Shown one piece after another: positions 10,876 to 35,370 of a DNA stretch of 51,362 nucleotides. The notes under the pieces were generated by a model that saw only the letters and a list, made by a program, of their open reading frames with translations, ran no database searches and had not been told where the DNA came from. Source of the stretch: Candidatus Moraniibacteriota bacterium. Its GTDB lineage: Bacteria > Patescibacteriota > Minisyncoccia > Moranbacterales > GWC2-37-73. Each line of letters starts with the position of its first letter. Position 1 is the first letter of the stretch. The stretch spans positions 1-51,362 of the forward strand of contig JAQTLF010000003.1 in assembly GCA_028715015.1 (NCBI GenBank), given 5' to 3'. Both the position numbers and the translations under genes were made by a program.

Positions 10876-11541
10876 ATGGAAATAGATAAAATCAAGGCGA
10901 TTATATTTGATATGGATGGGGTTATTGTCGAATCTGAACCAATACATGAAAAGGCGGAAATGGAAGTTTGTCGACAGTTTGGCATGGAGGTTGATAAAAA
11001 GGAATGGGACAACTTTCGTGGGAAAAAATTGGAAGACATTTTTTCCTATGCCAGCAAGAAATATGGTACGGGAAATGAACCAATTGAGGAAATGATCATA
11101 CGTAAGATACAGTTGTATCTTACGTATGCATTGAATGAAATGAATCTTGTTGACGGTGTGCGCGAATTTTTGGAAGAGCTTAAAAACAATGGAAAATATG
11201 ATTATGCTTTGACAACATCGGGCAGAAAAATTCAACAAGAACAAATTCTTTCAAAGTTCAACCTTGCTGATTATTTTGAAATAGTTGTGGCTTCTGATGA
11301 CGTGAAAAATGGAAAACCTCATCCTGAACCCTATGAAATTACAGTGAGAAAACTTGGCGAGCAACCTGCAAATTGTTTGGTCATTGAGGATTCGGACAAT
11401 GGTGTCATTTCGGCCAAAGCTGCCGGATGCCAAGTGTGCGGGATAACAACGACATTTGGTCGTGACAGACTTGAATTGGCAGGTGCTGACATTGTCGTTG
11501 CTGATTTTTTTGAACTATCAAAAATATTTTTTGAAAAATAA
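10876..11541 (+). CDS. HAD-superfamily hydrolase (beta-phosphoglucomutase/phosphatase-like, subfamily IA)
   Basis: Motif I FDMDGVIVES, motif II TTSG, and motif III/IV K...EDSDNG. Confidence 0.8.
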   Translation: MEIDKIKAIIFDMDGVIVESEPIHEKAEMEVCRQFGMEVDKKEWDNFRGKKLEDIFSYASKKYGTGNEPIEEMIIRKIQLYLTYALNEMNLVDGVREFLEELKNNGKYDYALTTSGRKIQQEQILSKFNLADYFEIVVASDDVKNGKPHPEPYEITVRKLGEQPANCLVIEDSDNGVISAKAAGCQVCGITTTFGRDRLELAGADIVVADFFELSKIFFEK

Positions 11542-11556
11542 TTAAACATACGAATT

Positions 11557-11757
11557 ATGGTTTCATATAATTTCACAAAACAAAGGAAAAAGATTTATCA
11601 GCTGCATGTTCAGGGCATGCATTTTGGAGATATTGCCAAGGAGGTCAAAATGTCGGTTTTCAAAGTGAGTCAGGTTATAAAAAGAATTGAAGAAAAAGTT
11701 CCCAAGCAGGATTTGGAAAAATTTAAAACCCAATTTTCTTCTCAAAAACATTTATAG
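11557..11757 (+). CDS. small helix-turn-helix protein (sigma-70 region 4/LuxR-like)
   Basis: 66 aa. GMHFGDIAKEVKMSVFKVSQVIKRI resembles an HTH. It lies 8 nt upstream of the HEXXH gene. Confidence 0.5.
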   Translation: MVSYNFTKQRKKIYQLHVQGMHFGDIAKEVKMSVFKVSQVIKRIEEKVPKQDLEKFKTQFSSQKHL

Positions 11758-11765
11758 ATAAAAAT

Positions 11766-12922
11766 ATGAAAAAAGAATTTGAATTTCCATTTCATCGAAC
11801 AATTGGCGGGTCAGAAGAACAACACCAAGAAATTAAAAAGCAATGGCATGAATCAGTTGGTGAGATTTGGGATTTTAAAAGGAAAGATATTTCCAAATAT
11901 GAACAAAAAATCACTCCGGAAGATCAGGAAATTATGGAAGACGTACAAACATATGTGCATGAAATTGCGCTTAAATATGGCGGTGATCCAAAAATACTTC
12001 CCAAAGAAAGCATGTTTGTCTTAAGACTAGATAGCTTGTCCGAGATTTCAAATGGTGAGATTGAAAACGGATGTTGCAATTATTTTGACAGGATAATTGC
12101 AGTTGAATGGGGATCTTCCAAAATTCGTTCGGCGGCAATTTTGGCGCATGAAATGTTTCATTTGGAAAGTTTTTCTTCATTGAGAATGAATCAAGAAAAG
12201 AATAAAGTTTTGCCATATCGTATGGGAATTTCTTTGCACAGCAAGGACAAAAAACGATATATTTTCAAAGTGTTGAAGAGGCTTTAGTATCTGAACTGGT
12301 CAATGAACTTGTTGAAAAATATTTGCGCAATGATAAACGATTTACAACTGAATTTACGCAAATTGATTTAATAAAAAAATGGATAGCAAGAGCTGCTATT
12401 GAAAACGGGCATTCAGAAAAAGATGTTAAGGAATATTTGAATGAATTTCTCTCTTTTTCAAATACGAAAGATTTACTCGCAATGATTGAAAGTGATTATG
12501 ATGATGAATATAAGATTGGCTATGTATCGGAATATGTTAAGGGCATGATTGAAGATAAAGAAGCATTTTTCAGAGAACGAAAAGAGGAGCGAATAAGGCT
12601 TGATTTGTTTATTGATAAGATTCTTGAATCATCTGAAGGTTTGTTTAAAAACAAACATGAAGTCCTGGAAGTTTTTTTGCGAGCGCAACTTTCTGGAAGA
12701 TTGCTTCCATTGGCGCGAATGATTGAAAAATCATTTGGAAACGGAAGTTTTCGTGATGTTGCGAAGGAATTTGCGCAATTCAAAGATCCACAACAGGAAG
12801 CAGAATATTGGCTGATGAAAAAAAGACAAAAAGAAAAAAATGATTTGGAACAAAGACAACGCGAACGAATTGGAAAACTTGAAGAAATGGAAAAAGAAGG
12901 GAAGTTATATGTGCATGAATAA
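11766..12922 (+). pseudogene. HEXXH (zincin-like) protein gene split by a -1 frame change at an A6 run
   Basis: Frame 0 ORF 11766-12287 contains AILAHEMFH. The -1 frame is open from 12206 and continues to 12922. The two frames overlap across GACAAAAAACG (A-run 12249-12254). The joined product would read ...ISLHSKDKK/TIYFQSVEEALVSELV.... Confidence 0.65.
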
Positions 12923-13333: not shown

Positions 13334-14179
13334 ATGCATACCAAAACAAAATTGAATAACAAGAATCTTTTAAAAAGAGTTGTCGCAACGACAGCCCTTT
13401 CAATTTTTTCAGTGTCAATTTTGGCACCGATATCAAAAGCTCAAGTCGTGTCTCAATCACCAATAATGCCAGTGTTTGCGCCAATTTCTGATCAGAGCGT
13501 GACAGTCGGGCAAACTTTGACTTTCACGGTCACTGCTCAAAATCCAGATGGCACACCTTTGGTTTATGTTGCATATGGCGCTGATTTGCTTGGCGGCGCA
13601 ACATTTGATGCAAATTCAGGGACATATTCATGGACACCTTCTGCACAAGATATTGGAAATCACACCATAAACATATACGCATCTGACGGTTATTATGCTA
13701 TCAGCATGCCGGTTAATATTATGGTCAATGCTGCTGTGGATCCAGCACCGACACCAACACCTGCACCAGATCCAACACCGACACCAACACCTGCACCAGA
13801 TCCAACACCGACACCAACACCTGCACCAGATCCAACACCGACACCAACACCTGCACCAGATCCAACACCGATTCCAACACCCGCACCAGATCCAACACCG
13901 ATTCCGACACCAACACCCGCACCAGATCCAACACCGATTCCGACACCAACACCTGCACCAGATCCAACACCAATTCCAACACCCGCGCCGGATCCGACAC
14001 CTGCTCCAAAACCAACACCAAAACCATCTCATGAAAAGCAGTCCACTCAAAGAACTGATTCTGCCTCAAAAAGAATCGAATCAGAAAAAAGCAGCGAAAA
14101 CAATTCAAAAAAGCCAACAGAAAACAAGTCAGAATCTTCAAAAAAACCACAGCAAAGTGGCAGTGAAACTGAGAGATAA
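13334..14179 (+). CDS. secreted/surface protein with an Ig-like (cadherin-like) domain and a Pro/Thr-rich tandem-repeat linker
   Basis: Signal-like N-terminus ([23 protein letters not shown]). The segment [18 protein letters not shown]...[25 protein letters not shown] resembles a putative Ig domain. It is followed by about ten APDPTP(T/I)PTP repeats and a K/S/E-rich tail. Confidence 0.75.
13741..14010 (+). repeat. 30-bp tandem repeat (with 24-36 bp variants) encoding the PT-rich linker
   Basis: The unit TCCAACACCGACACCAACACCTGCACCAGA is repeated head-to-tail. Three identical copies lie at 13771-13860, preceded by a near-identical copy at 13741, and later copies diverge (ATTCC variants). Confidence 0.9.
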
Positions 14180-14213
14180 TCACTTTGAATCTGGCTGCAA
14201 ATTGAAAAAACAA

Positions 14214-14245
14214 AAACAAACCACACCTCGTGGTTTGTTTTTTGT
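14214..14245 (+). terminator. intrinsic terminator after the PT-repeat gene
   Basis: AAACCAC-acctc-GTGGTTT followed by GTTTTTTG. Confidence 0.6.
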
Positions 14246-14313
14246 ACTTTTCTTGTTTTTTGATTGTATATATTTTACACGGGGAATATTTTAACTGGAG
14301 GAGGTGAATTTAT

Positions 14314-22317: not shown

Positions 22318-22669
22318 GTTTAAGCAATCAAGAAGAAGTGATGTTAAATTCTTTAAGAAACATCCGCAAAAAAGAAAATATTTAAAAATTCGGGCGATGG
22401 AAAAGATACATCCCGATGCATATCAGAAGATGTGCGTGAGGATGTGTTTTTTATACTCTCCAACTATAGGTTGGAAAAGTAAAAAATGTGAACCTTAAAA
22501 AGATGTAATAATAGAACTGATCGCAATTTATTGCGGTTAGTCCTTTAAGATAATTTGTAGTAATACAAATTTCTGGTTGTTTATTCGAGCTTATACGTTT
22601 TTTCATCTTTTCGTTAAATAAAGATGATACCTGATTGAGCAAAAGTTCGCTTTTGTTTAAATCTATTTA

Positions 22670-24214
<1,545 letters not shown>

Positions 24215-24223
<9 letters not shown>

Positions 24224-24440
24224 TAGGGAGTTAAGGTGCGATTGGTGTCTTCGGACAACCAATCAATTCTAACGGTCGTTTGTTCTTGCTTCGGCAAGGA
24301 TAAATCTTGTTTACCATTGAGGTAAGCAAAAATTCGGATAACCAGTCATTAGGACTAGCCACAATAGCTTACGATTAGCCTCGGCTTTTTGTATTGCTGT
24401 AGGCATGAAAACACTTTTTCGCGAAGGTGTTTTTTTGTTG
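24215..24440 (+). repeat. direct repeat, left copy (16S 3' end plus trailer plus terminator)
   Basis: CCTCCTTTCTAGGGAGTTAAGGTGCGAT...GTAGGCATGAAAACACTTTTTCGCGAAGGTGTTTTTTTGTTG. It is co-linear with 31349-31572. Confidence 0.9.
24407..24437 (+). terminator. intrinsic terminator of the 16S transcription unit
   Basis: AAAACACTTtttcgcgAAGGTGTTTTTTT. The same module recurs at 31541 and, with 2 changes, at 35264. Confidence 0.65.
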
Positions 24441-24502
24441 TGTGAAATAGTATGATATGATATGGATATAATGTTAAGTAAAAATGCATCTAAAAGGCAA
24501 AT

Positions 24503-24841
24503 ATGAAACTGAAGCAAGACAAATACCGCAAGGCAAGAGGAGGACATTCCAGATTGCTGGACGTCAGTTGTTCAAAATGCTCACAGCATCTTTTCTATTA
24601 TCAAAAAGATGGCCCAGGAATTTTGAAAAGAACTTATTTGGATAGAATTACAAATTCAGAGAAATTTGAAAATTTGCAACATCTTTCCCTTGGTAAAATT
24701 CCGCAATTAATCTGCTCAAAGTGCGGCGAACATATAGGAGCGCCGATTATTTACAAAAAAGAAAATCGTCTAGTATTCAGAATGTTTGAAGGCGCGGTAA
24801 GCAAGAAAATTGTTAATCTGGATAGTCAGAAAAATTTATGA
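24503..24841 (+). CDS. small zinc-ribbon protein (CxxC...CxxC)
   Basis: 112 aa with CSKCSQH and CSKCGEH about 50 aa apart. Its stop overlaps the next start (ATGA). Confidence 0.55.
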   Translation: MKLKQDKYRKARGGHSRLLDVSCSKCSQHLFYYQKDGPGILKRTYLDRITNSEKFENLQHLSLGKIPQLICSKCGEHIGAPIIYKKENRLVFRMFEGAVSKKIVNLDSQKNL

Positions 24842-25644
24842 AAGATTTCCACATCCATTCAGGATTAATTGAGCATACGAATGATGACATTTTTTCAATT
24901 GCTCAAAAGGCAAAAGAACTTGGATTTACTGAAATCACAATCTTGGAACATATTTCTCCGTTTAAAATAAAATATCCAGCAAATTTAGATCCAAGTAATA
25001 CGATTTTTGCAGATAAAATTCCAGAAACATATTCAAGGAGAACTTCAACAGTTTCTGTTTTGGTTGAACAATGCAAAAAGGCGGAAGCGGAAATTGGTAT
25101 TAAAATTAACAGAAGTTTGGAGGTTGATTATTATAAATCTTTTGAAAATGATATCAAAGATTATGAGAAACACGGGTTAGATTATTTGACTCTGAGTAGT
25201 CATTACGTTGAAGACCCCAAGGCTGACGATGAAAACAAGCTTATTCATATTGGCTTTTCAAAAAACATGAATTATTTTCTAGAAAAATACGGGGAAGAAA
25301 AACTTTTTGAATTGTACTTTAAAAATTTGATGAATGGTGTAAAATCTGGCTTGTTTGAATTAGTGGCTCATTTGGATTTTTTCGGAAGAGCTTTGGAAAA
25401 CTATGACCATCGAAAAGTGATTAAATATGTCGAGCCGATTTTGGAGCAAATAATTAAGAGAGAAATGTTTCTTGAGTTGAATATTTCTCAAGAAAAGCTC
25501 CAGCCAGCACTTGAAATAATCGAGAAATACAAGGAACTTGGCGGAAACAAATTGGTTTTCGGCAGTGACTCTCACTCACTTAGTGATTTAGTAGGTTCAA
25601 TTGAAAAGAGGCAGAAATTTGTTGAGCTTGTTGATGTCAAATAA
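24838..25644 (+). CDS. PHP-domain phosphoesterase (HisJ/histidinol-phosphatase family)
   Basis: DFHIHS at the N-terminus, then EH, SSHY, VAHLDF and GSDSHS, matching the PHP metal-ligand pattern. Confidence 0.7.
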   Translation: MKDFHIHSGLIEHTNDDIFSIAQKAKELGFTEITILEHISPFKIKYPANLDPSNTIFADKIPETYSRRTSTVSVLVEQCKKAEAEIGIKINRSLEVDYYKSFENDIKDYEKHGLDYLTLSSHYVEDPKADDENKLIHIGFSKNMNYFLEKYGEEKLFELYFKNLMNGVKSGLFELVAHLDFFGRALENYDHRKVIKYVEPILEQIIKREMFLELNISQEKLQPALEIIEKYKELGGNKLVFGSDSHSLSDLVGSIEKRQKFVELVDVK

Positions 25645-25666
25645 TGTTTTACTTAAGCTAGTAATT

Positions 25667-26188
25667 ATGGACATAATCAAAACGAAGAGATTCATATTAA
25701 GATTAATAAGATTGAAAGATGCAAAAGATCTTGCAAAAAACATGAATAATTGGAATGTGATAAAAAATCTTTCTCAAATTCCGTTTCCATATGAGTTGAG
25801 GCACGCCAAGCAATTTAGTGGGAAAATAGAGAAGGAGATGAAAAAAGAAAAACCTGAAAATTATGTGATGGTGATTGAAATTGATGGCGAGGTAGTTGGT
25901 GCAGTTGGTGCTCATCACATCGTGCATGGACACAAGGCAGAAATGGGTTATTGGCTGGCTGAAAAACATTGGGGGCGGGGAATTATGTCCGAGGTTGTAA
26001 AGAAATTCATGGCGCATATTTTTACGAAATTCAAACTTCGTCGCATATGTGCATATGCCTATCCTTATAATAAAGGTTCAATGAGGGTCATGGAAAAAGT
26101 TGGAATGAAATTTGAAGGAATCGGTCGCAAAGATATGATTAAGGATGGAAAATTTCTCGATGTTCATATTTATGCAAAAGTTAAGTGA
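25667..26188 (+). CDS. GNAT family N-acetyltransferase (RimJ/RimL-like)
   Basis: TKRFILRLIRLKDAKDL N-terminus, and YWLAEKHWGRGIMSE (Q/RxxGxG/A acetyl-CoA loop). ATG 25667 is preferred over 25601, which overlaps the upstream gene. Confidence 0.75.
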   Translation: MDIIKTKRFILRLIRLKDAKDLAKNMNNWNVIKNLSQIPFPYELRHAKQFSGKIEKEMKKEKPENYVMVIEIDGEVVGAVGAHHIVHGHKAEMGYWLAEKHWGRGIMSEVVKKFMAHIFTKFKLRRICAYAYPYNKGSMRVMEKVGMKFEGIGRKDMIKDGKFLDVHIYAKVK

Positions 26189-26217
26189 TATTTAGGAAAC
26201 TTGTATGGATAGAAGAA

Positions 26218-26254
26218 GAGCCTATCAACAGTTATGTTGATAGGCTCTTATTTT
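26218..26254. terminator. bidirectional terminator between convergent genes
   Basis: GAGCCTATCAAC-agttat-GTTGATAGGCTC followed by TTATTTT. Confidence 0.7.
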
Positions 26255-26265
26255 ACAAAAAGGCG

Positions 26266-27327
26266 TCAAAGTGTTTCTTCATACATTTTTAAGTAATCTC
26301 TGAGTGCTTCATTGAAGTCATTGGCGAGAATTATCTCGCCGTGTAATTTCATGATTCCGCGCTTATACTGCTTGAGAACAGGCGCGATTTTAAATAGATC
26401 GCCCCATTGTCCATAATGCAGATATTCGCTACTGTGGTATCTGATCATCTTTGATGAATATGTGATATCACGACAATGTCCATGAATTATCACATTAGCA
26501 TCGGGAAACGCGTTGAAAATTTCCAATATCAACGGCGTTTCTGAGGATGGCATACCTTCGCCTGACCAAGATACAATTCGATGCTTCCAGTCAGTGATAA
26601 GAGTCAAGTCGCTGCACGATAAATTTCCGACCAGCGAACCAGAACGCGTTACCAAAACCCCTCCGTCAATTCTTTTTGCTAAAAATCCAGCCGAGGTGTT
26701 GGTATAATGATCCTCTTGCATCTTGTTACCAATCGCTGAAAATTCTGGATAGTTGGTGTCTACGATTTCGTCGATATTAAGCTTGATTCTCTTTTCTTCA
26801 TATCGAATCTTTTGATAACGATGATAGACAGTGTCAAAAATCTTTTCCCATGGTGCCATCGTAATCTTTTCGAGTTCGCCGCTGGCAGAATAGACATATT
26901 CTGGCCAAACGATTTCAACTCCAAAACTTGACACAATATCTTGCGCTCTGGGTGTAGCTGGATGATTCCAGTACTGGCTTCCCATAGCTGGAGCAACAAC
27001 AACATGTTTGCCTTTGCCGATTGCAGCATGCAATATAGACATAGGGTAATTATCGGCAATACCGTAAGAGATTTTTGAGAAAGTATTGAATGTGCATGGT
27101 GCAACGATAACAATGTCTTCCTCTGGAATCTTGTCACAACTTGATTCCCGACACACGATTACTTCGCGACTAATGGAATCCCAACAATCAATCATTGGAA
27201 TAGCGGCTGGCGTTGGCATAAGAATTGGTTTTGCTCCATCCTTTTTGAGCATATCGAGCAAAATCATCACGCCTTTGGCTTTAGTCGCACCCGTCACAAT
27301 GACATAAACAATCTTATTCTGAAGCAT
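26266..27327 (-). CDS. fusion protein: N-terminal flavoprotein domain (EpiD/CoaC/UbiX-like) and C-terminal class II aldolase/adducin-like domain
   Basis: N-terminus KIVYVIVTGATKAKG...IVIVAPCTFNTFSKISYGIADN...VVVAPAM follows the flavoprotein pattern. C-terminus VLVTRSGSL...PSSETPLILEIF...ANVIIHGHC follows the aldolase-II PSSE/HxH pattern. SD AAAGGTGGTGA upstream. Confidence 0.7.
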   Translation of the reverse strand: MLQNKIVYVIVTGATKAKGVMILLDMLKKDGAKPILMPTPAAIPMIDCWDSISREVIVCRESSCDKIPEEDIVIVAPCTFNTFSKISYGIADNYPMSILHAAIGKGKHVVVAPAMGSQYWNHPATPRAQDIVSSFGVEIVWPEYVYSASGELEKITMAPWEKIFDTVYHRYQKIRYEEKRIKLNIDEIVDTNYPEFSAIGNKMQEDHYTNTSAGFLAKRIDGGVLVTRSGSLVGNLSCSDLTLITDWKHRIVSWSGEGMPSSETPLILEIFNAFPDANVIIHGHCRDITYSSKMIRYHSSEYLHYGQWGDLFKIAPVLKQYKRGIMKLHGEIILANDFNEALRDYLKMYEETL

Positions 27328-27348
27328 CTCATATCACCACCTTTCGTT

Positions 27349-27825
27349 TTAAGTTAAATGATACTGACGATAGAGTTCGTAAGCCATCGCCGATACGGCA
27401 ACCGGCAAAGTCAAGAAATCGACCTTGCTTTTATCCATCGGCAATTTTACGATTTCATCAAGCAACTGCTGTTTCTCAAGTGTGAGCCCAGACGTTTCTG
27501 TGCCAAAAATAATTACTACATCTTGGTTTGCTGGCAATTTGACATCATAGAAGATTTTGTCAGTTTCGCCAGATGTGCCAATTAGGTACTTACCTTTAGC
27601 TCTCAGGTCTTTGATAGCTTCTTCGAAGGTTTCGTAGTGAATTTCCTTGAAAGTACCCTTGATGTTCCATGACCCAACTTTCGTCTTTACTTTTGGAATA
27701 TCAAAAGACAGTGAATTTTTGCCAGAGGTATAAACGACGGCGTCGATTGACTTGGCAATCTGGACAATGTGCGCCATATCGTATGGCGAACGGATGATAT
27801 CAAATAATAATTCAACTTTTCTCAT
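27349..27825 (-). CDS. SPOUT (SpoU/TrmH/TrmL-like) RNA methyltransferase
   Basis: C-terminal knot motifs VVIIFGTETSGL and KLPM...FLTLPVAVSAMAYELYRQ. The ATG at 27825 lies 1 nt after the upstream stop and has a GGAG SD. The longer ORF to 27888 is rejected. Confidence 0.65.
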   Translation of the reverse strand: MRKVELLFDIIRSPYDMAHIVQIAKSIDAVVYTSGKNSLSFDIPKVKTKVGSWNIKGTFKEIHYETFEEAIKDLRAKGKYLIGTSGETDKIFYDVKLPANQDVVIIFGTETSGLTLEKQQLLDEIVKLPMDKSKVDFLTLPVAVSAMAYELYRQYHLT

Positions 27826-27826
27826 T

Positions 27827-28552
27827 TTATCTATCTCCTTTTGGTTTGATAGCGACCAGAATGAACGGGTCTGATGTAATGGTGGCATCTTTTGCGAATT
27901 TTTCTAGAACCATTTTTTCGTCGGCTTCGGCGAAATTTTCTACAAATGGAAAACTTTTAACCACCGAAACCAGTTCTTGTGCGGAATTGTATTTTCGTGC
28001 AATCTCATATTCATCAAATTTGAAAATTTTAAATCCCGCATTGCACAATAATTCTTTGTAATAGTCTGGTTTTCGTTGCCGGATAATCCTACCACTAAAC
28101 ATTTCTGCAATCTCAATCATACCTTTGCCATAGCCATATTCACGAAAAATGAAAATGCCGTTGCCTTTCAAAACGCGAAAGATTTCGGTTGCATCTATTC
28201 GTGTAACATTTTTGGCAGTTACAATGTCAAAACTACAATCGTCAAATGGCATATCGCCAATATTCGCCTCAGTTATCTTGGCTTTATTGGCAAGATTTTT
28301 GACTGCGAGTTTTACCATTTCACTTGAATTATCAATTCCGAAAAATTGAACTTGCTTGTCGCTATTTTGTAAAATCTGCGACAAAACGAAACCATTTCCA
28401 GTGCCGACATCAAGCAGTGTGCTACCATCATTAAGATGCTGTGTAATCAGAAGTATAAACAGGGTATTCACATCAATGCCTTGTTCGACTTTAAAATTTG
28501 CAACATAATCTCTAATGACTAGAGTCTTGTTATCATATTGCATTGCAGCCAC
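27827..28552 (-). CDS. class I SAM-dependent methyltransferase
   Basis: Motif I LLDVGTGNGFV, FGIDNS, and DIVTAKN. The likely true start is ATG at 28543, preceded by AAGGGGGGGG. Confidence 0.75.
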   Translation of the reverse strand: MAAMQYDNKTLVIRDYVANFKVEQGIDVNTLFILLITQHLNDGSTLLDVGTGNGFVLSQILQNSDKQVQFFGIDNSSEMVKLAVKNLANKAKITEANIGDMPFDDCSFDIVTAKNVTRIDATEIFRVLKGNGIFIFREYGYGKGMIEIAEMFSGRIIRQRKPDYYKELLCNAGFKIFKFDEYEIARKYNSAQELVSVVKSFPFVENFAEADEKMVLEKFAKDATITSDPFILVAIKPKGDR

Positions 28553-28853
28553 CCCCCCCTTGTTTTTCTGAATGTAAATGTATTCAGTACGTTGTTAAAA
28601 AACATCAAACAAAAAAGTTGCGTTGCAATCTCCTGTTCGAATGCTCATATTTATAGCACAGATTACAATAACACAGGATACGAAATAACGCAAGAGTCGG
28701 TCGTCGGATTTTTTAACATGGGATTTAATGCTACAAATACTTGCGTTGTTTATCAATATGTGGTAAAAGTAACTTTACTATAAGGGGAGTACCTAAGGTG
28801 AACTTTTTATGGTTAGTAGTACATTAAAAATCAATTATTAAGGGGGAGAGAAA

Positions 28854-29561
28854 ATGAGTGAGATAAATAATGACTTGTGGTTATTTGATTACAATCAAGG
28901 CGCAGCATACGAAGCTTTCAGTAAGTGTCAGGATGTTTTTAGGGTTATTGAGACACATCTACAGAATAATTTTGATTTTAAGGAGAAAGTAATTCTTGAG
29001 ATTGGAGCTGGAAGTGGAAAGTTTACGCCTTTTCTGGCAAAACAGTGTTCTAAGCTGTATGTTGTTGAAAGAAGCGCAAGTCTTATGCAAATCAACCGCG
29101 ACAAGAATATTCATGCTATCAATACGGAATTCATACTTTCAGATGTTAAAGATCTAGCTATGAAACCCAATAGTATTGATGTGATTTTCGCAGGTTGGAG
29201 CTTGACTTCCATGAGGGAATATTTCGGTATAATTCTTGAGAGTTTCAGGAAATTTTTACGCAAGGATGGAATAATTCTGTTAGTGGAGAATGCTGGCAAT
29301 GATGAGTTTTGTAAAATAATGAATCTCGAAGAGTTTACATCCATAATGAAGAATGTCTATGTGGATATGGGATTCACGCAAAGAAAGGTTGTCAGCACCA
29401 CCATTAAATTGCCGTGTAAAAATGTGTTCTACGATGCATTCCCGAATAAAAAGGAGGCAATGTTGCCATCTCTTGAAATACAACATAAAGTGTTGATTCT
29501 GGAGATGCAATCCTCAGTTTTATTTCAAAAAATCACGTGTAATCATAAGGAGGAAGGGTAA
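28854..29561 (+). CDS. class I SAM-dependent methyltransferase
   Basis: Motif I ILEIGAGSGKFT, VVERS, and DVIFAGWSL. Strong SD AAGGGGGAG. Confidence 0.75.
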   Translation: MSEINNDLWLFDYNQGAAYEAFSKCQDVFRVIETHLQNNFDFKEKVILEIGAGSGKFTPFLAKQCSKLYVVERSASLMQINRDKNIHAINTEFILSDVKDLAMKPNSIDVIFAGWSLTSMREYFGIILESFRKFLRKDGIILLVENAGNDEFCKIMNLEEFTSIMKNVYVDMGFTQRKVVSTTIKLPCKNVFYDAFPNKKEAMLPSLEIQHKVLILEMQSSVLFQKITCNHKEEG

Positions 29562-29562
29562 A

Positions 29563-30474
29563 ATGAAAATCGTAGAATATAAAACTGGACACGAGGAACG
29601 ATTGGCAAAGCTGAAAGTCACGCTTTCTAATCCATTGTCACTCTGTTGGCAGGTTACCAAAAAGTGCAACTACAACTGTTCATTCTGCCTGAGTGGAGAA
29701 CAGGATCAGACGGATTTGCCATTAAGCAAGATTAAATCAATAATTGATGTCTTGGCCGAGTCGAATCTGTTAAGGATCGACTTTACCGGAGGTGAGCCAT
29801 TTCTTCGTTCTGATTTTTGCAAGATTTTGACCTATGCCTCAGAAAAGGGCATTGAGACGCTTGTTACCTCCAATGGTTCGATATGGAGCGAAAAAATCGC
29901 CAGCACTTTATTAGAGACCAACACATTGTTGTTGATTTCTTTGGATGGTGACAAGGAAATTCACGACAAATCTCGTGGTAAAGGCGCTTACAGCAAAGCC
30001 GTAGAGAATATTAAGAGATATCGAGATGCTGGCATTCCGCTTCGCATCAATTGTCTCATTCGAAAGGATAATGTAGATAAAATCGACTACGTCCATCAGT
30101 TAGTGAAAGATCTAAGGATAGATAGATTATTTTTTATCCTGATTGCGCCACAAGGAAAGGCCTATACTGATACAGAGCTTCTGCTTTCGGACAAGGAAAG
30201 AGTGTTCTATTTGGATAGAATTAAGGCGCTTAAGAAGGTATCGGGTGATCATCCATTCATTACGATTCAGGATTATTCAGAATTGGGTAATCATCACTCT
30301 TGCTTCTTGATCGATTCAAAAGGGGATGTAATTTCACAGGGCTATTCTCAAGACGATTGTATTAAGGTTGGCAACATCCTTACGGACGGCCTTGGGAAAT
30401 GCTGGAACAACCCAATTGTTAATCACAAGGGACACTTTCTGCAGTATAGTTACATGTTTAACTATTACATGTAA
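29563..30474 (+). CDS. radical SAM enzyme with a reduced SPASM/twitch-like C-terminal region
   Basis: CNYNCSFC (CxxxCxxC), FTGGEPFLR, SLDG, and C-terminal C-FLIDSKGDV...C-IKVGNILTDGLGKCWNN. It starts 1 nt after the upstream stop, with a GGAGGAAGGG SD. Confidence 0.8.
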   Translation: MKIVEYKTGHEERLAKLKVTLSNPLSLCWQVTKKCNYNCSFCLSGEQDQTDLPLSKIKSIIDVLAESNLLRIDFTGGEPFLRSDFCKILTYASEKGIETLVTSNGSIWSEKIASTLLETNTLLLISLDGDKEIHDKSRGKGAYSKAVENIKRYRDAGIPLRINCLIRKDNVDKIDYVHQLVKDLRIDRLFFILIAPQGKAYTDTELLLSDKERVFYLDRIKALKKVSGDHPFITIQDYSELGNHHSCFLIDSKGDVISQGYSQDDCIKVGNILTDGLGKCWNNPIVNHKGHFLQYSYMFNYYM

Positions 30475-30513
30475 GAAAGTAGCTGTAAGGTTGTACATGA
30501 ACAATTTATTTGC

Positions 30514-30550
30514 AAAGGTCGGAAATTAATTATATCTCCGACCTTTTTTC
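30514..30550 (+). terminator. intrinsic terminator after the radical SAM gene
   Basis: AAAGGTCGGA-N13-TCCGACCTTT followed by TTTC. Confidence 0.75.
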
Positions 30551-30754
30551 TTTTTCTATACTTATTTTTAAAGCAATCCCGTATTTATCAATGTGTTGCA
30601 AGTAATATTATTGGTTTGTATCATATTTGCTTGCTATTAAGCAAATTGACAACTATACTTATAAATGGAGTCTTTTAAGAGCAGCATTATGCCCAGTAGA
30701 ATTTTGATCCAAAATAGATAAGAAATTAAATTAATAATTAAGTATTTTATTTGT

Positions 30755-31252
30755 ATGAGAATAGGAATTATTGGACCAAACAGATGTCCTCAATTAAAAC
30801 AGGAAGAGCTAGAGATAAGAAAGAATAATCTCGGTAAGGTTGCAAGAATTTTAGCAAAAACAAGTTTTGAAATTCTCTTAACTCCCGATAAGGATTCCTT
30901 ATTGGAGTTATTGGGTAAGGAATATTTGAAAAATGATGGCAAAAAAATATCGGAAATAGTCCCACTAGATGATGATTTTGAAAAATACCTGAATGTTGAT
31001 TTAGGAGAAATAATTTCTTGTGGAAAATGGCCAAATCAACCTTCAAAATTCAATGAAGAATGTGGTGTTATGTTTTGTGTTGGATATGGTGGAATGGTTA
31101 TGGCTGAAATAGGTTTTTCTGGATATTATAATCCTAAAAGAATCTACATCATAAATGAATTTATTTCTCAGAAACTTCCTGAGGAAATTGGTTTGGATAT
31201 AAAATATATAAATTTAAATGAGCTAGAGGATACTTTAAAAAATTTAAAATAA
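30755..31252 (+). CDS. Rossmann-like protein, LOG/TIGR00725/SLOG-superfamily-like (weak)
   Basis: 165 aa. MRIGIIGP beta1, IVPLDD, and VGYGGMVMAEIG resemble the LOG-family PGGxGTxxE segment. Assigned by eye only. Confidence 0.4.
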   Translation: MRIGIIGPNRCPQLKQEELEIRKNNLGKVARILAKTSFEILLTPDKDSLLELLGKEYLKNDGKKISEIVPLDDDFEKYLNVDLGEIISCGKWPNQPSKFNEECGVMFCVGYGGMVMAEIGFSGYYNPKRIYIINEFISQKLPEEIGLDIKYINLNELEDTLKNLK

Positions 31253-31348
31253 AAGTAGAAAACAAGCCATGTTAGTTCTGATAAGGGTGTCAATTGGCAC
31301 GCTTTTTCATATTAAAAATCGTTATTTCCACTAATCTCCCATGAGCCG

Positions 31349-31572
31349 CCTCCTTTCTAGGGAGTTAAGGTGCGATCAGTGTCTTCGGACAATTGGTCAA
31401 TTCTAACGGTCGACCTTGTCACTCACGAGTGACAGGTTCTTGTTTACCATTGAGGTAAGCAAAAATTCGGATAACCAGTCATTAGGACTAGCCACGATAG
31501 CTTACGATTAGCTTGTCTTTTTGTATTGCTGTAGGCATGAAAACACTTTTTCGCGAAGGTGTTTTTTTGTTG
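31349..31572 (+). repeat. direct repeat, right copy (16S 3'-end/trailer/terminator sequence without a 16S gene)
   Basis: It starts with CCTCCTTTCTAGGGAGTTAAGGTGCGAT and ends with GAAGGTGTTTTTTTGTTG. It differs from 24215-24440 mainly in two hairpin segments. Confidence 0.9.
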
Positions 31573-31662
31573 GGCAATTATTTAAATACCAAAACCAAGC
31601 TTTATGTAATTTGTAAGGTTGAAGGATGTATTAGTTTGTATAAAACTTTAATATCTAATCTT

Positions 31663-35236: not shown

Positions 35237-35263
35237 GGCTCCACTGTTGTAACATTGTTGCAA

Positions 35264-35292
35264 AAAAACACTTTTTCGCGAGAGTGTTTTTC
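35264..35292 (+). terminator. intrinsic terminator (third copy of the AACACTTTTTCGCGA.GTGTTTTT module)
   Basis: The sequence is AAAAACACTTTTTCGCGAGAGTGTTTTTC. Confidence 0.6.
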
Positions 35293-35370
35293 TTGTTGGA
35301 AATTTTGCAATTTGGGCTTGGGTTGGATGTATGAATATACAAGGAATAATTTTTTTAATCGCATAATTTT

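Follow-up and report, generated by a model that had tools for sequence, protein, structure and literature searches.

The closest described relatives of the proteins considered here lie in several distinct groups of enzymes, namely the SpoU/TrmH methyltransferases (TrmL, TrmH, RlmB, AviRb), the HFCD flavoproteins (CoaC, EpiD/MrsD, UbiX), the class II aldolase/adducin superfamily (FucA, MtnB, AraD, OtnC/YgbL) and the radical S-adenosylmethionine (SAM) enzymes, among them viperin, the prokaryotic viperins (pVips) and SkfB. In EpiD and in phosphopantothenoylcysteine (PPC) decarboxylase (PPCDC) an active-site His initiates thiol oxidation. Members of all of these groups are brought together in a gene cassette that we have analyzed in a 51,362-nt stretch of contig JAQTLF010000003.1 from a Candidatus Moraniibacteriota bacterium (the window, to whose full length all coordinates refer; loci and proteins of the comparison set are labelled L### and P####). 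In candidate phyla radiation (CPR) bacteria and DPANN archaea the genomes are very small, and no function is known for the majority of the accessory genes. The cassette of the window encodes a fusion of an HFCD-type flavoprotein domain to a class II aldolase-like domain, a SPOUT protein, two class I SAM methyltransferases (MT_A and MT_B) and a radical SAM enzyme. The reading that we favor, with confidence that falls just short of even, is that the cassette tailors a nucleotide- or ribose-derived small molecule rather than RNA.

Gene content was compared over 66 loci taken from a set with one genome per species, to which 12 loci from metagenome assemblies were added, with open reading frames (ORFs) labelled by BLAST and clustering; the counts that follow cover the 40 loci with a full-length fusion. 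The pairing of SPOUT and fusion is invariant, the two genes being adjacent in 40/40. MT_A is found in 35 of the loci (no MT_A was detected in L011, L014, L041, L045 and L047, among which are several short or truncated contigs) and a second class I methyltransferase family, in the form of MT_B or of a 267-aa protein, in 34. These four families are the core of the cassette, and the radical SAM enzyme, present in 15/40, is an accessory. An earlier note on this DNA had tied the methyltransferase-radical SAM pair to the fusion; MT_B does lie directly upstream of the radical SAM gene in each of the 13 loci where both were detected, but the smaller number of loci with a radical SAM gene places this enzyme outside the core. 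Contigs of equal size recur in the lists of matches to the fusion and to the radical SAM enzyme.

Among the other accessories a Nudix hydrolase is the most frequent (20/40, together with the radical SAM enzyme in 1 locus only), followed by a SLOG-type protein of 165-190 aa (12/40, the window included), a TrxR-like flavoprotein (10/40) and Fic (4/40, from three lineages). The TrxR-like protein has no CxxC and never occurs in the same locus as the radical SAM enzyme (0/40), which suggests that the two represent alternative redox routes. The Nudix proteins have NudB and NudC as their best matches. Rare in-operon accessories include, in Pacearchaeota, an NMNAT-like nucleotidyltransferase (58 bits against archaeal NMNAT) and, in WWE3 and a related metagenome-assembled genome (MAG), a zeta kinase that resembles AvrRxo1/XopAJ (70 bits, E 1.5e-19); kinases of the APH family, a histidine phosphatase and an additional SpoU gene of canonical type also occur. 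At least one nucleotide- or sugar-phosphate-handling accessory is encoded in 37/40 loci; of the three loci without one, two have the fusion at the end of a contig, and in the third, a contig of 6 kb, the cassette starts ∼300 bp from one end. It is because the accessories are of a kind that handles free nucleotides, dinucleotide cofactors and sugar phosphates that we prefer the small-molecule reading, and the suggestion that a modified nucleoside, sugar or small molecule is made, which had previously been offered as a second choice after RNA, fits the evidence better than an RNA role.

Reciprocal jackhmmer searches join the putative SLOG gene of the window to a family of 180-190-aa proteins encoded after the fusion in DPANN and Clostridia loci. 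LDcluster4 of the SLOG superfamily was reportedly defined by Burroughs et al. in 2015, and 6 of 9 family members match the corresponding Pfam model (PF18306; best E 4.8e-7), with G110 and E118 invariant throughout. The window protein itself has no PF18306 match; it is 43% identical (E 2e-46) to the product of a gene adjoining the radical SAM gene in the relative L078, and this homologue reaches 18.4 bits against a cut-off of 26.3.

The proteins of the cassette match generic superfamily models only, none of them diagnostic, and their public annotations are equally generic ('TrmH family RNA methyltransferase', 'flavoprotein', 'radical SAM protein'), as might be expected of a chance neighborhood of unrelated housekeeping genes. 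Such an explanation is hardly credible. Gene order is kept in the 40 loci, over several bacterial phyla and DPANN archaea, and it is this conservation of synteny between unrelated flanks that excludes chance and upholds the view that the genes form an uncharacterized but coherent set rather than a run of housekeeping functions.

The fusion is recognized by Pfam over both of its halves, as Flavoprotein (PF02441; 55.7 bits, E 5.7e-15) at residues ∼1-180 and as Aldolase_II (PF00596; 44.7 bits, E 1.8e-11) at ∼185-353; the other domain calls made from the sequence (SPOUT, two class I methyltransferases, radical SAM) were likewise confirmed by Pfam. Among 5.8 billion proteins searched there were ∼85 clusters, 341-397 aa in length, with both PF02441 and PF00596, and an alignment of 79 of these full-length homologues has invariant residues in both halves. 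The AlphaFold2 model is a single compact unit (predicted local distance difference test, pLDDT, 95.5; predicted template modelling score, pTM, 0.91). Because 79 homologues share the two-domain architecture and the model is compact, the fusion is genuine and not a sequencing artefact. The family is real but rare, an exhaustive HMMER search of 1.84 billion representative proteins having yielded no more than 45 clusters at E<=1e-30, of which ∼28 are full length. Foldseek assigns the halves to separate fold families, the N-terminal one resembling AtHAL3a (a PPC decarboxylase) and EpiD with a target-normalized template modelling score (TMt) of ∼0.8 and also UbiX-type flavin prenyltransferases, and the C-terminal one FucA/YgbL with TMt ∼0.65-0.68; no single entry of the PDB was found by Foldseek to span both halves.

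The N-terminal half shares the HFCD fold, with PEED68-71, APCTFNT76-82, K85, GIAD89-92 and M157 invariant or nearly so. Its likeness to described HFCD proteins extends to the PASANT-like APCTFNT, to GIADN, to a PXMNXXMW-like APAMNxxYWNHP in the family consensus and to the conserved T12-G13-A14; in the window protein the Asn of the PAMN motif is replaced by Gly. In contrast to the HFCD decarboxylases, however, the position of the catalytic His (H67 of EpiD, H90 of AtHAL3a) falls on a variable column or on E69 of PEED, and the clamp Cys of CoaC is absent, the Cys175 position being Ser or variable. NCBIfam scores for this half are 51 bits for CoaBC (cut-off 219.7), 39.4 for CoaC (261.4) and 19 for UbiX.

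The C-terminal half retains the fold, the three metal-binding His and the catalytic Glu of the class II aldolases, with H282, H284 and H329 (in H329-G-E) invariant and E263, within P260-S-S-E, nearly so, and the alignment to FucA extends through the third metal His. Since these four residues are kept the aldolase-like domain is probably an active metalloenzyme. It differs from the class II aldolases in being compact (∼165 aa) and in having a signature of its own, W-x-G-x3-P-S-S-E ... H-G-H-C-x-D-I-T-Y-S ... Y-x-Y-G ... H-G-E. This aldolase type is found solely in fusion to an HFCD-like domain, although relatives with other N-termini exist. Its top NCBIfam equivalog is the dehydratase MtnB, at 31.3 bits against a cut-off of 137.05, which may be a hint at a pentulose phosphate substrate. 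Methionine salvage through MtnB and 5-deoxyribose salvage were themselves set aside, as there is this 31-bit similarity only and MtnA, MtnK and MtnD are not conserved with the cassette. Judged by its residues, the fusion as a whole looks catalytically competent, but not as a decarboxylase.

Several remote relatives of the fusion were noted in the representative library (P0392, P0490, P0468 and P0400 were examined). P0392 is a natural fusion of 607 aa in which CoaBC (Flavoprotein and DFP) is joined to Aldolase_II. Relatives of ∼800 aa include P0490, in which a response-regulator-like N-terminus precedes an HFCD-like region and the aldolase domain; a relative of 1115 aa adds a PNP_UDP_1 nucleoside phosphorylase domain; and a remote family of 320-350 aa has a degenerate flavoprotein-like N-terminal domain. 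In three public clusters (P0078, P0086 and P0197) neighboring parts of the cassette, or unrelated sequence, are joined, giving SPOUT with an internally deleted fusion, an MT_A-like protein with the C-terminus of the radical SAM enzyme and a protein with a HAD-family hit attached to the aldolase C-terminus. These resemble assembly chimeras or deletions and were ignored as variants of the fusion.

The affinity of the N-terminal half to CoaC raises the question of whether the cassette serves the synthesis or salvage of a modified dinucleotide cofactor (flavin, coenzyme A/pantetheine-like or NAD-like), with the HFCD domain acting on flavin mononucleotide or on a pantetheine-like substrate as do UbiX and CoaC, the aldolase supplying or processing a phosphorylated carbon unit and the methyltransferases finishing the product. 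CPR and DPANN organisms are commonly without complete cofactor pathways, the accessories mirror such pathways (Nudix, an NMNAT/PPAT-fold adenylyltransferase, P-loop/APH kinases, a histidine phosphatase and, as a candidate flavin reductase, the TrxR-like protein), P0392 is a precedent for joining CoaBC to an aldolase, and CoaBC and AtHAL3a are the nearest neighbors of the HFCD half in sequence and structure, with UbiX-type proteins also among the structural matches. We nevertheless regard a cofactor pathway as very doubtful. Both the catalytic His and the Cys of CoaC are missing, the similarity to UbiX is weak, CoaB, PanK and riboflavin kinase are not conserved with the cassette, and the cassette is far too rare for an essential cofactor, a full-length fusion being present in ∼37 of 185,579 representative species.

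SPOUT is the most conserved protein of the cassette, with 72-75% identity between the window and gut Clostridia MAGs. It matches Pfam SpoU_methylase (PF00588; 49.7 bits, cut-off 29.7, E 5.3e-13), has in common with the SpoU/TrmH enzymes their fold, the SAM knot and a minimal, TrmL-like size of 158 aa, and retains SAM-knot motifs 2 and 3 (GTExSGL, LPM). The nearest solved structures are those of AviRb, TrmL and RlmB, and the SPOUT profile also aligns to TrmH. Scores against the NCBIfam equivalogs are 23-37 bits, vs cut-offs of 160-366 (RlmB 37.2 against 366, TrmL 30.7 against 190.6). Apart from being always encoded beside the fusion, SPOUT differs from SpoU/TrmH in motif 3, where SLN is FLT, and above all in motif 1, where P-x-N-x-G-x3-R-[ST]-A has become P-[YF]-D-x-A-x3-Q-x-A in at least 90% of 43 cassette SPOUTs, so that Asn, Gly and Arg are Asp, Ala and Gln; in a check of the register against AviRb (1x7o) SPGNIGSIIRSA aligns with kPyDiahiiqva. 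The Arg that is lost is the catalytic residue of the TrmH-type enzymes (the equivalent of R41 in TrmH). As it is replaced by Gln family-wide, either the substrate or the mechanism of SPOUT has probably changed. L042 carries a tandem-duplicated, 321-aa SPOUT of the cassette type and another copy after the radical SAM gene (11108-12073; 13754-14260), and in the Pacearchaeota loci L038-L040 the Nudix gene is followed by a further SpoU gene, of canonical type (105.7 bits to PF00588).

MT_A matches Methyltransf_31/11/25 of Pfam, and its best neighbors in the PDB and NCBIfam are small-molecule methyltransferases (sterol C-methyltransferase, phosphoethanolamine N-methyltransferase, UbiE, BioC, ArsM), although its scores against all of these families are far under the cut-offs. 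MT_B matches Methyltransf_11/25 and has weak RrnaAD/Erm matches (E 8.5e-6 and 5e-8); it falls with the 267-aa methyltransferase of the Nudix-type loci into one homologous cluster, c3.

These enzymes were originally taken to point to RNA hypermodification, and it is here that an RNA role must be weighed. SPOUT, the two class I methyltransferases and the radical SAM enzyme might either carry out a lineage-specific hypermodification of rRNA or tRNA or form a mobile, protective multi-methyltransferase resistance cassette comparable to AviRa/AviRb, Tsr, Erm and Cfr. Among real methyltransferases, SPOUT has its best PDB profile match in the rRNA methyltransferase AviRb (1x7o, E 1.2e-10), the AviRa/AviRb resistance pair likewise combines a class I with a SpoU methyltransferase, and the SpoU-family match itself and the weak RrnaAD/Erm matches of MT_B agree with it. 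A universal macromolecular substrate would suit two proteins as highly conserved as SPOUT and the radical SAM enzyme are. In Clostridia the cassette is cargo of a mobilizable element, and at some loci of the comparison it lies near APH-like kinases or ABC transporter/two-component genes. In the window, moreover, it lies 2 kb from the 16S gene. This last point, which had been used as support, loses its force since there is no 16S or other rRNA gene near the cassette in 7 other radical-SAM-type loci. The Gln at the position of the catalytic Arg argues against RNA, as does the obligatory flavoprotein-aldolase partner of SPOUT, for which no role in RNA modification is obvious. Accessories of the Nudix, SLOG, NMNAT-like, AvrRxo1-like and TrxR-like types fit RNA methylation poorly; the radical SAM enzyme is not RlmN/Cfr-like; the cassette proteins are without RNA-binding extensions and are acidic to neutral (median isoelectric points of 5.0-6.7, which is weak evidence); and the canonical SpoU beside the cassette in Pacearchaeota suggests a different role for the variant. 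RNA hypermodification or protective RNA methylation is, in our estimation, unlikely, and less likely than the tailoring of a small molecule.

The radical SAM enzyme carries the cluster motif CNYNCSFC at residues 35-42 (Pfam Radical_SAM, E 1.5e-20) and is 70-85% identical across classes of Patescibacteria. Its AlphaFold2 model (pLDDT 92.5) has SkfB as top match in Foldseek (E 1.7e-19) and is superimposed on the viperins 6q2p and 9dfn over ∼295 columns with template modelling scores of 0.74-0.75 (query-normalized, TMq) and 0.77-0.81 (TMt). The best PDB sequence match is viperin 5vsl (E 7e-16), with which the enzyme shares the CxxxCxxC motif with CNY-C-FC spacing, its length and its overall fold. 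Two pVip profiles of PADLOC, a library that has no curated cut-off for pVip, match over nearly the full length with 99 and 97 bits. Against the curated NCBIfam family of prokaryotic viperins (NF038283, viperin_w_prok), on the other hand, the score is 85.4 bits vs a cut-off of 180. In a phmmer alignment to 5vsl, C28 and Q30 stand where mouse viperin has N77 and H79, its nucleotide-contacting residues after the first strand. The partner of the enzyme is a class I methyltransferase and not a nucleotide kinase. More distant relatives are radical SAM-kinase fusions. MftC (TIGR03962) gives 114 bits vs a cut-off of 265, and no mft genes (the mftA/mftB context) were found in any locus examined.

A further difference from viperin is a C-terminal C-x12-G-x6-C hairpin that resembles the start of a twitch/SPASM motif. 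One of the C-terminal Cys is nearly invariant, a second is ∼90% conserved and a third (C280) is kept solely in the closest clade, where an auxiliary Fe-S cluster may be present. The description 'twitch-like' consequently stands in part: SkfB, a twitch enzyme, matches the structure equally well as do the viperins and two Cys are broadly conserved, but the SPASM model of Pfam (PF13186) gives no match in the protein, the conserved Cys are too few for a clear twitch cluster and the overall shape is viperin-like.

With a viperin-shaped enzyme in the window one must ask whether the cassette is an antiviral or conflict system, in which the radical SAM enzyme makes a chain-terminating dehydro-nucleotide that is processed by the methyltransferases, Nudix and SLOG (or in which these process a nucleotide signal), for defense or for attack on the host of an episymbiont. 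To the profile, sequence and fold matches just described, and to the kinase fusions among distant relatives, can be added that Nudix and SLOG are typical of nucleotide-centered conflict systems, as described in PMC6459960 and PMC7159879 with citation of Burroughs et al. 2015, and that some loci adjoin Fic, OLD-type ATPase/TOPRIM, SUa-2TM or zeta-toxin-like genes. Yet the enzyme occurs in a minority of the loci, falls far below the curated viperin cut-off and has Cys and Gln where the nucleotide would be contacted; no effector or sensor gene is conserved; and the cassette is absent from phage, plasmid and viral-contig collections. Membership of a known defense system was rejected, since beyond the pVip profiles PADLOC matches other cassette proteins only via generic methyltransferase domains. 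We consider a viperin-type system to be quite improbable.

The cassette is an accessory trait, not a housekeeping one. Its bacterial carriers are Paceibacterota and other Patescibacteria, many Saccharibacteria/Nanosyncoccus, Berkelbacteria, WWE3 and Omnitrophota, and it is found as well in several 'uncultured Clostridia' MAGs from human or animal gut and in Woese-, Pace- and Nanoarchaeota. The identities of SPOUT and of the radical SAM enzyme over such distances point to horizontal transfer or to strong constraint, if not to both. One Clostridiaceae MAG has integrase/excisionase genes on one side of the cassette and relaxase, MobC, TnpV and RepA_N genes on the other, and the cassette is therefore cargo of an integrative mobilizable element there. 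The cassette crosses phyla and domains and is horizontally mobile; this mobility and the Nudix, SLOG, NMNAT-like, AvrRxo1-like, TrxR-like and Fic accessories were absent from the earlier note. Other loci have resolvase genes as neighbors, in addition to the Fic, OLD-type ATPase and SUa-2TM genes mentioned above. A phage or plasmid origin was rejected, the fusion having no tblastn match in 50,697 phage records, 72,556 plasmid records or IMG/VR contigs. Within a few kb of the cassette in L003, L021, L026, L027 and L018 there are genes for a MacB/FtsX-ABC fused transporter (574 aa) and/or a response regulator with a histidine kinase (clusters c12-c14, in Clostridia, Saccharibacteria and Berkelbacteria MAGs), which may reflect a resistance or export context, or coincidence.

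Starting from the gene content, synteny, mobility, domain fusion, folds and motif losses observed, we infer a substrate class, an order of steps and a product for small-molecule tailoring as follows. The substrate would be a ribose-containing mono- or dinucleotide, for example a nucleoside triphosphate, NAD/ADP-ribose or a related cofactor. In the window the viperin-shaped radical SAM enzyme would abstract a hydrogen from the ribose of the nucleotide; elsewhere the first step might instead fall to a Nudix pyrophosphatase, alone or together with a SLOG N-glycosidase-like protein, an NMNAT-like transferase or an AvrRxo1-/APH-like kinase, and some versions would add the TrxR-like NAD(P)H flavoprotein, with no redox disulfide. 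In the second step the aldolase-like domain might bind a (keto)sugar phosphate through its three-His metal site, with enediolate chemistry leading to cleavage, epimerization, dehydration or decarboxylation. The fused flavin domain would then perform a coupled two-electron redox reaction, the acidic PEED replacing the His of the decarboxylases, and up to three SAM-dependent transferases would finally decorate the product. A more specific form of this proposal, in which the product is a methylated nucleotide-derived metabolite or cofactor analogue not described before, SPOUT has switched from RNA to a (di)nucleotide and the fusion is a flavin/metal enediolate-redox enzyme acting on a sugar phosphate (both of them new enzyme types), the radical SAM and NAD(P)H-flavoprotein routes are interchangeable and the whole is horizontally shared among episymbiotic CPR bacteria, DPANN archaea and gut Clostridia and serves them in dealing with hosts or competitors, strikes us as conceivable but rather doubtful, and we are just as hesitant about the claim that the cassette encodes new chemistry.

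Several observations weigh against a small-molecule pathway. No cassette protein attains the cut-off of any curated NCBIfam equivalog, and there is therefore no step with known chemistry. The NMNAT-, AvrRxo1- and NudC-like accessories are below family thresholds and each is present in few loci, and the isoelectric points are weak evidence here too. No transporter, regulator, effector or sensor is conserved with the cassette over the 40 loci. To our knowledge every characterized SpoU-family enzyme methylates RNA, and a small-molecule substrate for a SPOUT enzyme would be without precedent. The N-terminal domain of the fusion, finally, could be ligand-binding rather than redox-active, as relatives of the P0400/P0490 type have a degenerate flavoprotein-like domain. 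A gene cluster for a ribosomally synthesized and post-translationally modified peptide, made up of an HFCD decarboxylase, an MftC/SkfB-like radical SAM enzyme and methyltransferases, was considered as well and rejected: no precursor, protease or transporter is conserved, the HFCD domain has no His and the invariant partner is SPOUT.

The arrangement of the genes in the window is given in Table 1. As had been read from the sequence, the five genes are tightly coupled in two divergent operons, MT_A-SPOUT-fusion (MT_A first) on the minus strand and MT_B-radical SAM on the plus strand, with gaps of 1 nt (MT_A-SPOUT), 21 nt (SPOUT-fusion) and 1 nt (MT_B-radical SAM). All five have Shine-Dalgarno (SD) sequences, AAGGAG for SPOUT, GGTGGTGA for the fusion, GGGGGAG for MT_B, AAGGAGG for the radical SAM enzyme and GGGGGGGTGG for MT_A, whose likely start is the ATG at 28543 that gives the same length as in its homologues. 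The spacer between the operons contains weak sigma-70-like matches at 28713-28741 (plus) and at 28756-28728 and 28598-28571 (minus), and spacers of ∼150-300 bp are seen in other radical-SAM-type loci as well. A riboswitch or other known RNA in the spacer was rejected because Rfam gave no match even at E<=1. The plus-strand operon ends in a hairpin with a fold energy of -14.1 kcal/mol (z = -4.67 vs shuffles), which a pattern scan for terminators overlooked as its loop limit was 8 nt. No SD is evident for the SLOG gene, and promoter-like sites lie at 30596-30702; in the window this gene is apparently transcribed on its own.

Table 1. Positions of the cassette genes, neighboring genes and other features of the window.
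Feature	Position	Strand	Size	Remarks
16S rRNA gene	22666-24222			
Direct repeat, left copy	24215-24447	+	233 nt	Starts at last 10 nt of 16S gene (16S trailer)
Zn-ribbon protein, PHP/HisJ-like phosphoesterase, RimJ/RimL-like GNAT	24503-26188	+	112 aa (Zn-ribbon)	Trio converging on the fusion
Fusion (HFCD flavoprotein and class II aldolase-like)	26266-27327	-	353 aa	
SPOUT	27349-27825	-	158 aa	True start is the ATG giving MRKVELL; mechanical ORF extends to 27888
MT_A, class I SAM methyltransferase	27827-28543	-	238 aa	ORF extends to 28552
Divergent intergenic region MT_A/MT_B	28544-28853		310 bp	301 bp if the MT_A ORF end at 28552 is used
MT_B, class I SAM methyltransferase	28854-29561	+	235 aa	
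Radical SAM enzyme	29563-30474	+	303 aa	
Terminator-like hairpin and T-run	30514-30556	+		Ends the MT_B-radical SAM operon
Probable SLOG-superfamily protein (LOG-like, LDcluster4-type)	30755-31252	+	165 aa	
Direct repeat (233 nt), right copy	31349-31579	+		After SLOG gene; 91-99% identical to left copy
Direct repeat, partial copy	35260-35304			Before second RibD_C paralogue

PHP, GNAT and LOG-like genes had all been assigned to the cassette. The LOG-like gene is conserved with it, but the PHP and GNAT genes are neighbors specific to the window: they were discarded as members, being absent from all other loci, and neither the Zn-ribbon nor the RibD_C gene is conserved with the cassette in other loci. 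The PHP/HisJ-like phosphoesterase reaches 78 bits vs a cut-off of 90. In the relative L078 it is a histidine phosphatase gene that lies in this place beyond the fusion and converges on it, and this may be a non-homologous functional replacement.

The 233-nt repeats bracket a 6.9-kb block of nine genes (24448-31348), ZnR-PHP-GNAT-fusion-SPOUT-MT_A-MT_B-rSAM-SLOG. The element begins with the last 10-14 nt of 16S rRNA (anti-SD CCTCCTTTCT), which pair with the following AGGGAG, holds several hairpins and ends in a terminator. The hairpins differ in sequence yet still fold, two of them showing compensatory changes among the three copies, and the element has no match in Rfam. In the metagenome contig L079 a copy follows argS, with no rRNA gene (1773-2046), and a partial copy (1299-1393) brackets a 120-aa ORF. 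The repeats are possible att sites of an island, and the element might represent a scar of att-like type, an intergenic repeat that is mobile or an RNA with a regulatory role; it may also be a lineage-specific repeated intergenic element. Because it is also found without 16S, bracketing another small ORF, its link to the cassette is uncertain.

The G+C content of the window is ∼36-43%, and the closest relatives of its proteins are annotated as Candidatus Paceibacterota or Pacebacteria, which makes a CPR/Patescibacteria origin the most likely one. The 16S gene is the sole rRNA gene, with no 23S, 5S or tRNA gene within the 51 kb, which indicates an unlinked rRNA arrangement. A tandem array at 13681-14064, with an alternating 12-/18-nt register, a 30-nt period and 17 overlapping copies, lies within an ORF (13334-14179) and indicates a repetitive protein.

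A search of the full-text literature found no description of the fusion or of the gene set; Burroughs et al. 2015 (NAR 43:10633), whose supplement might mention the neighborhood, was outside its coverage. Every part of the cassette comes from a known superfamily, and we rate its novelty accordingly, as that of a mobile nucleotide-metabolizing operon with two neofunctionalized components and a fusion absent from the PDB and the literature searched. Its spread over the boundary between bacteria and archaea, and into gut Clostridia on a mobile element, points to a portable and selectable function, and as a compact set of four to eight genes it is experimentally tractable. Should the cassette carry out small-molecule chemistry, its product would be a natural product or cofactor of a new, nucleotide-derived kind, SPOUT would be the first enzyme of its fold with a small-molecule substrate, the fusion would be a flavoprotein-aldolase catalyst of a new type, and a viperin-shaped radical SAM enzyme would be serving a purpose other than antiviral defense. 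Were RNA the substrate, the cassette would be a mobile module of several enzymes for RNA modification or resistance, which would likewise be unusual. In either case the names that these proteins now have in databases ('TrmH family RNA methyltransferase', 'flavoprotein', '3-polyprenyl-4-hydroxybenzoate decarboxylase') probably mislead.

As a system, the cassette can be compared with the nucleotide-centered Nudix/SLOG systems. Two accounts of these (PMC6459960, PMC7159879) make no mention of an aldolase, a flavoprotein or SpoU in this context. Like them, the cassette combines Nudix, SLOG, nucleotidyltransferase, kinase and Fic components in mobile operons of sporadic occurrence. In place of the nucleotide cyclase or synthetase, the sensor and the effector of those conflict systems, however, none of which it has, its invariant core is made up of three SAM-dependent enzymes and a flavoprotein-aldolase.

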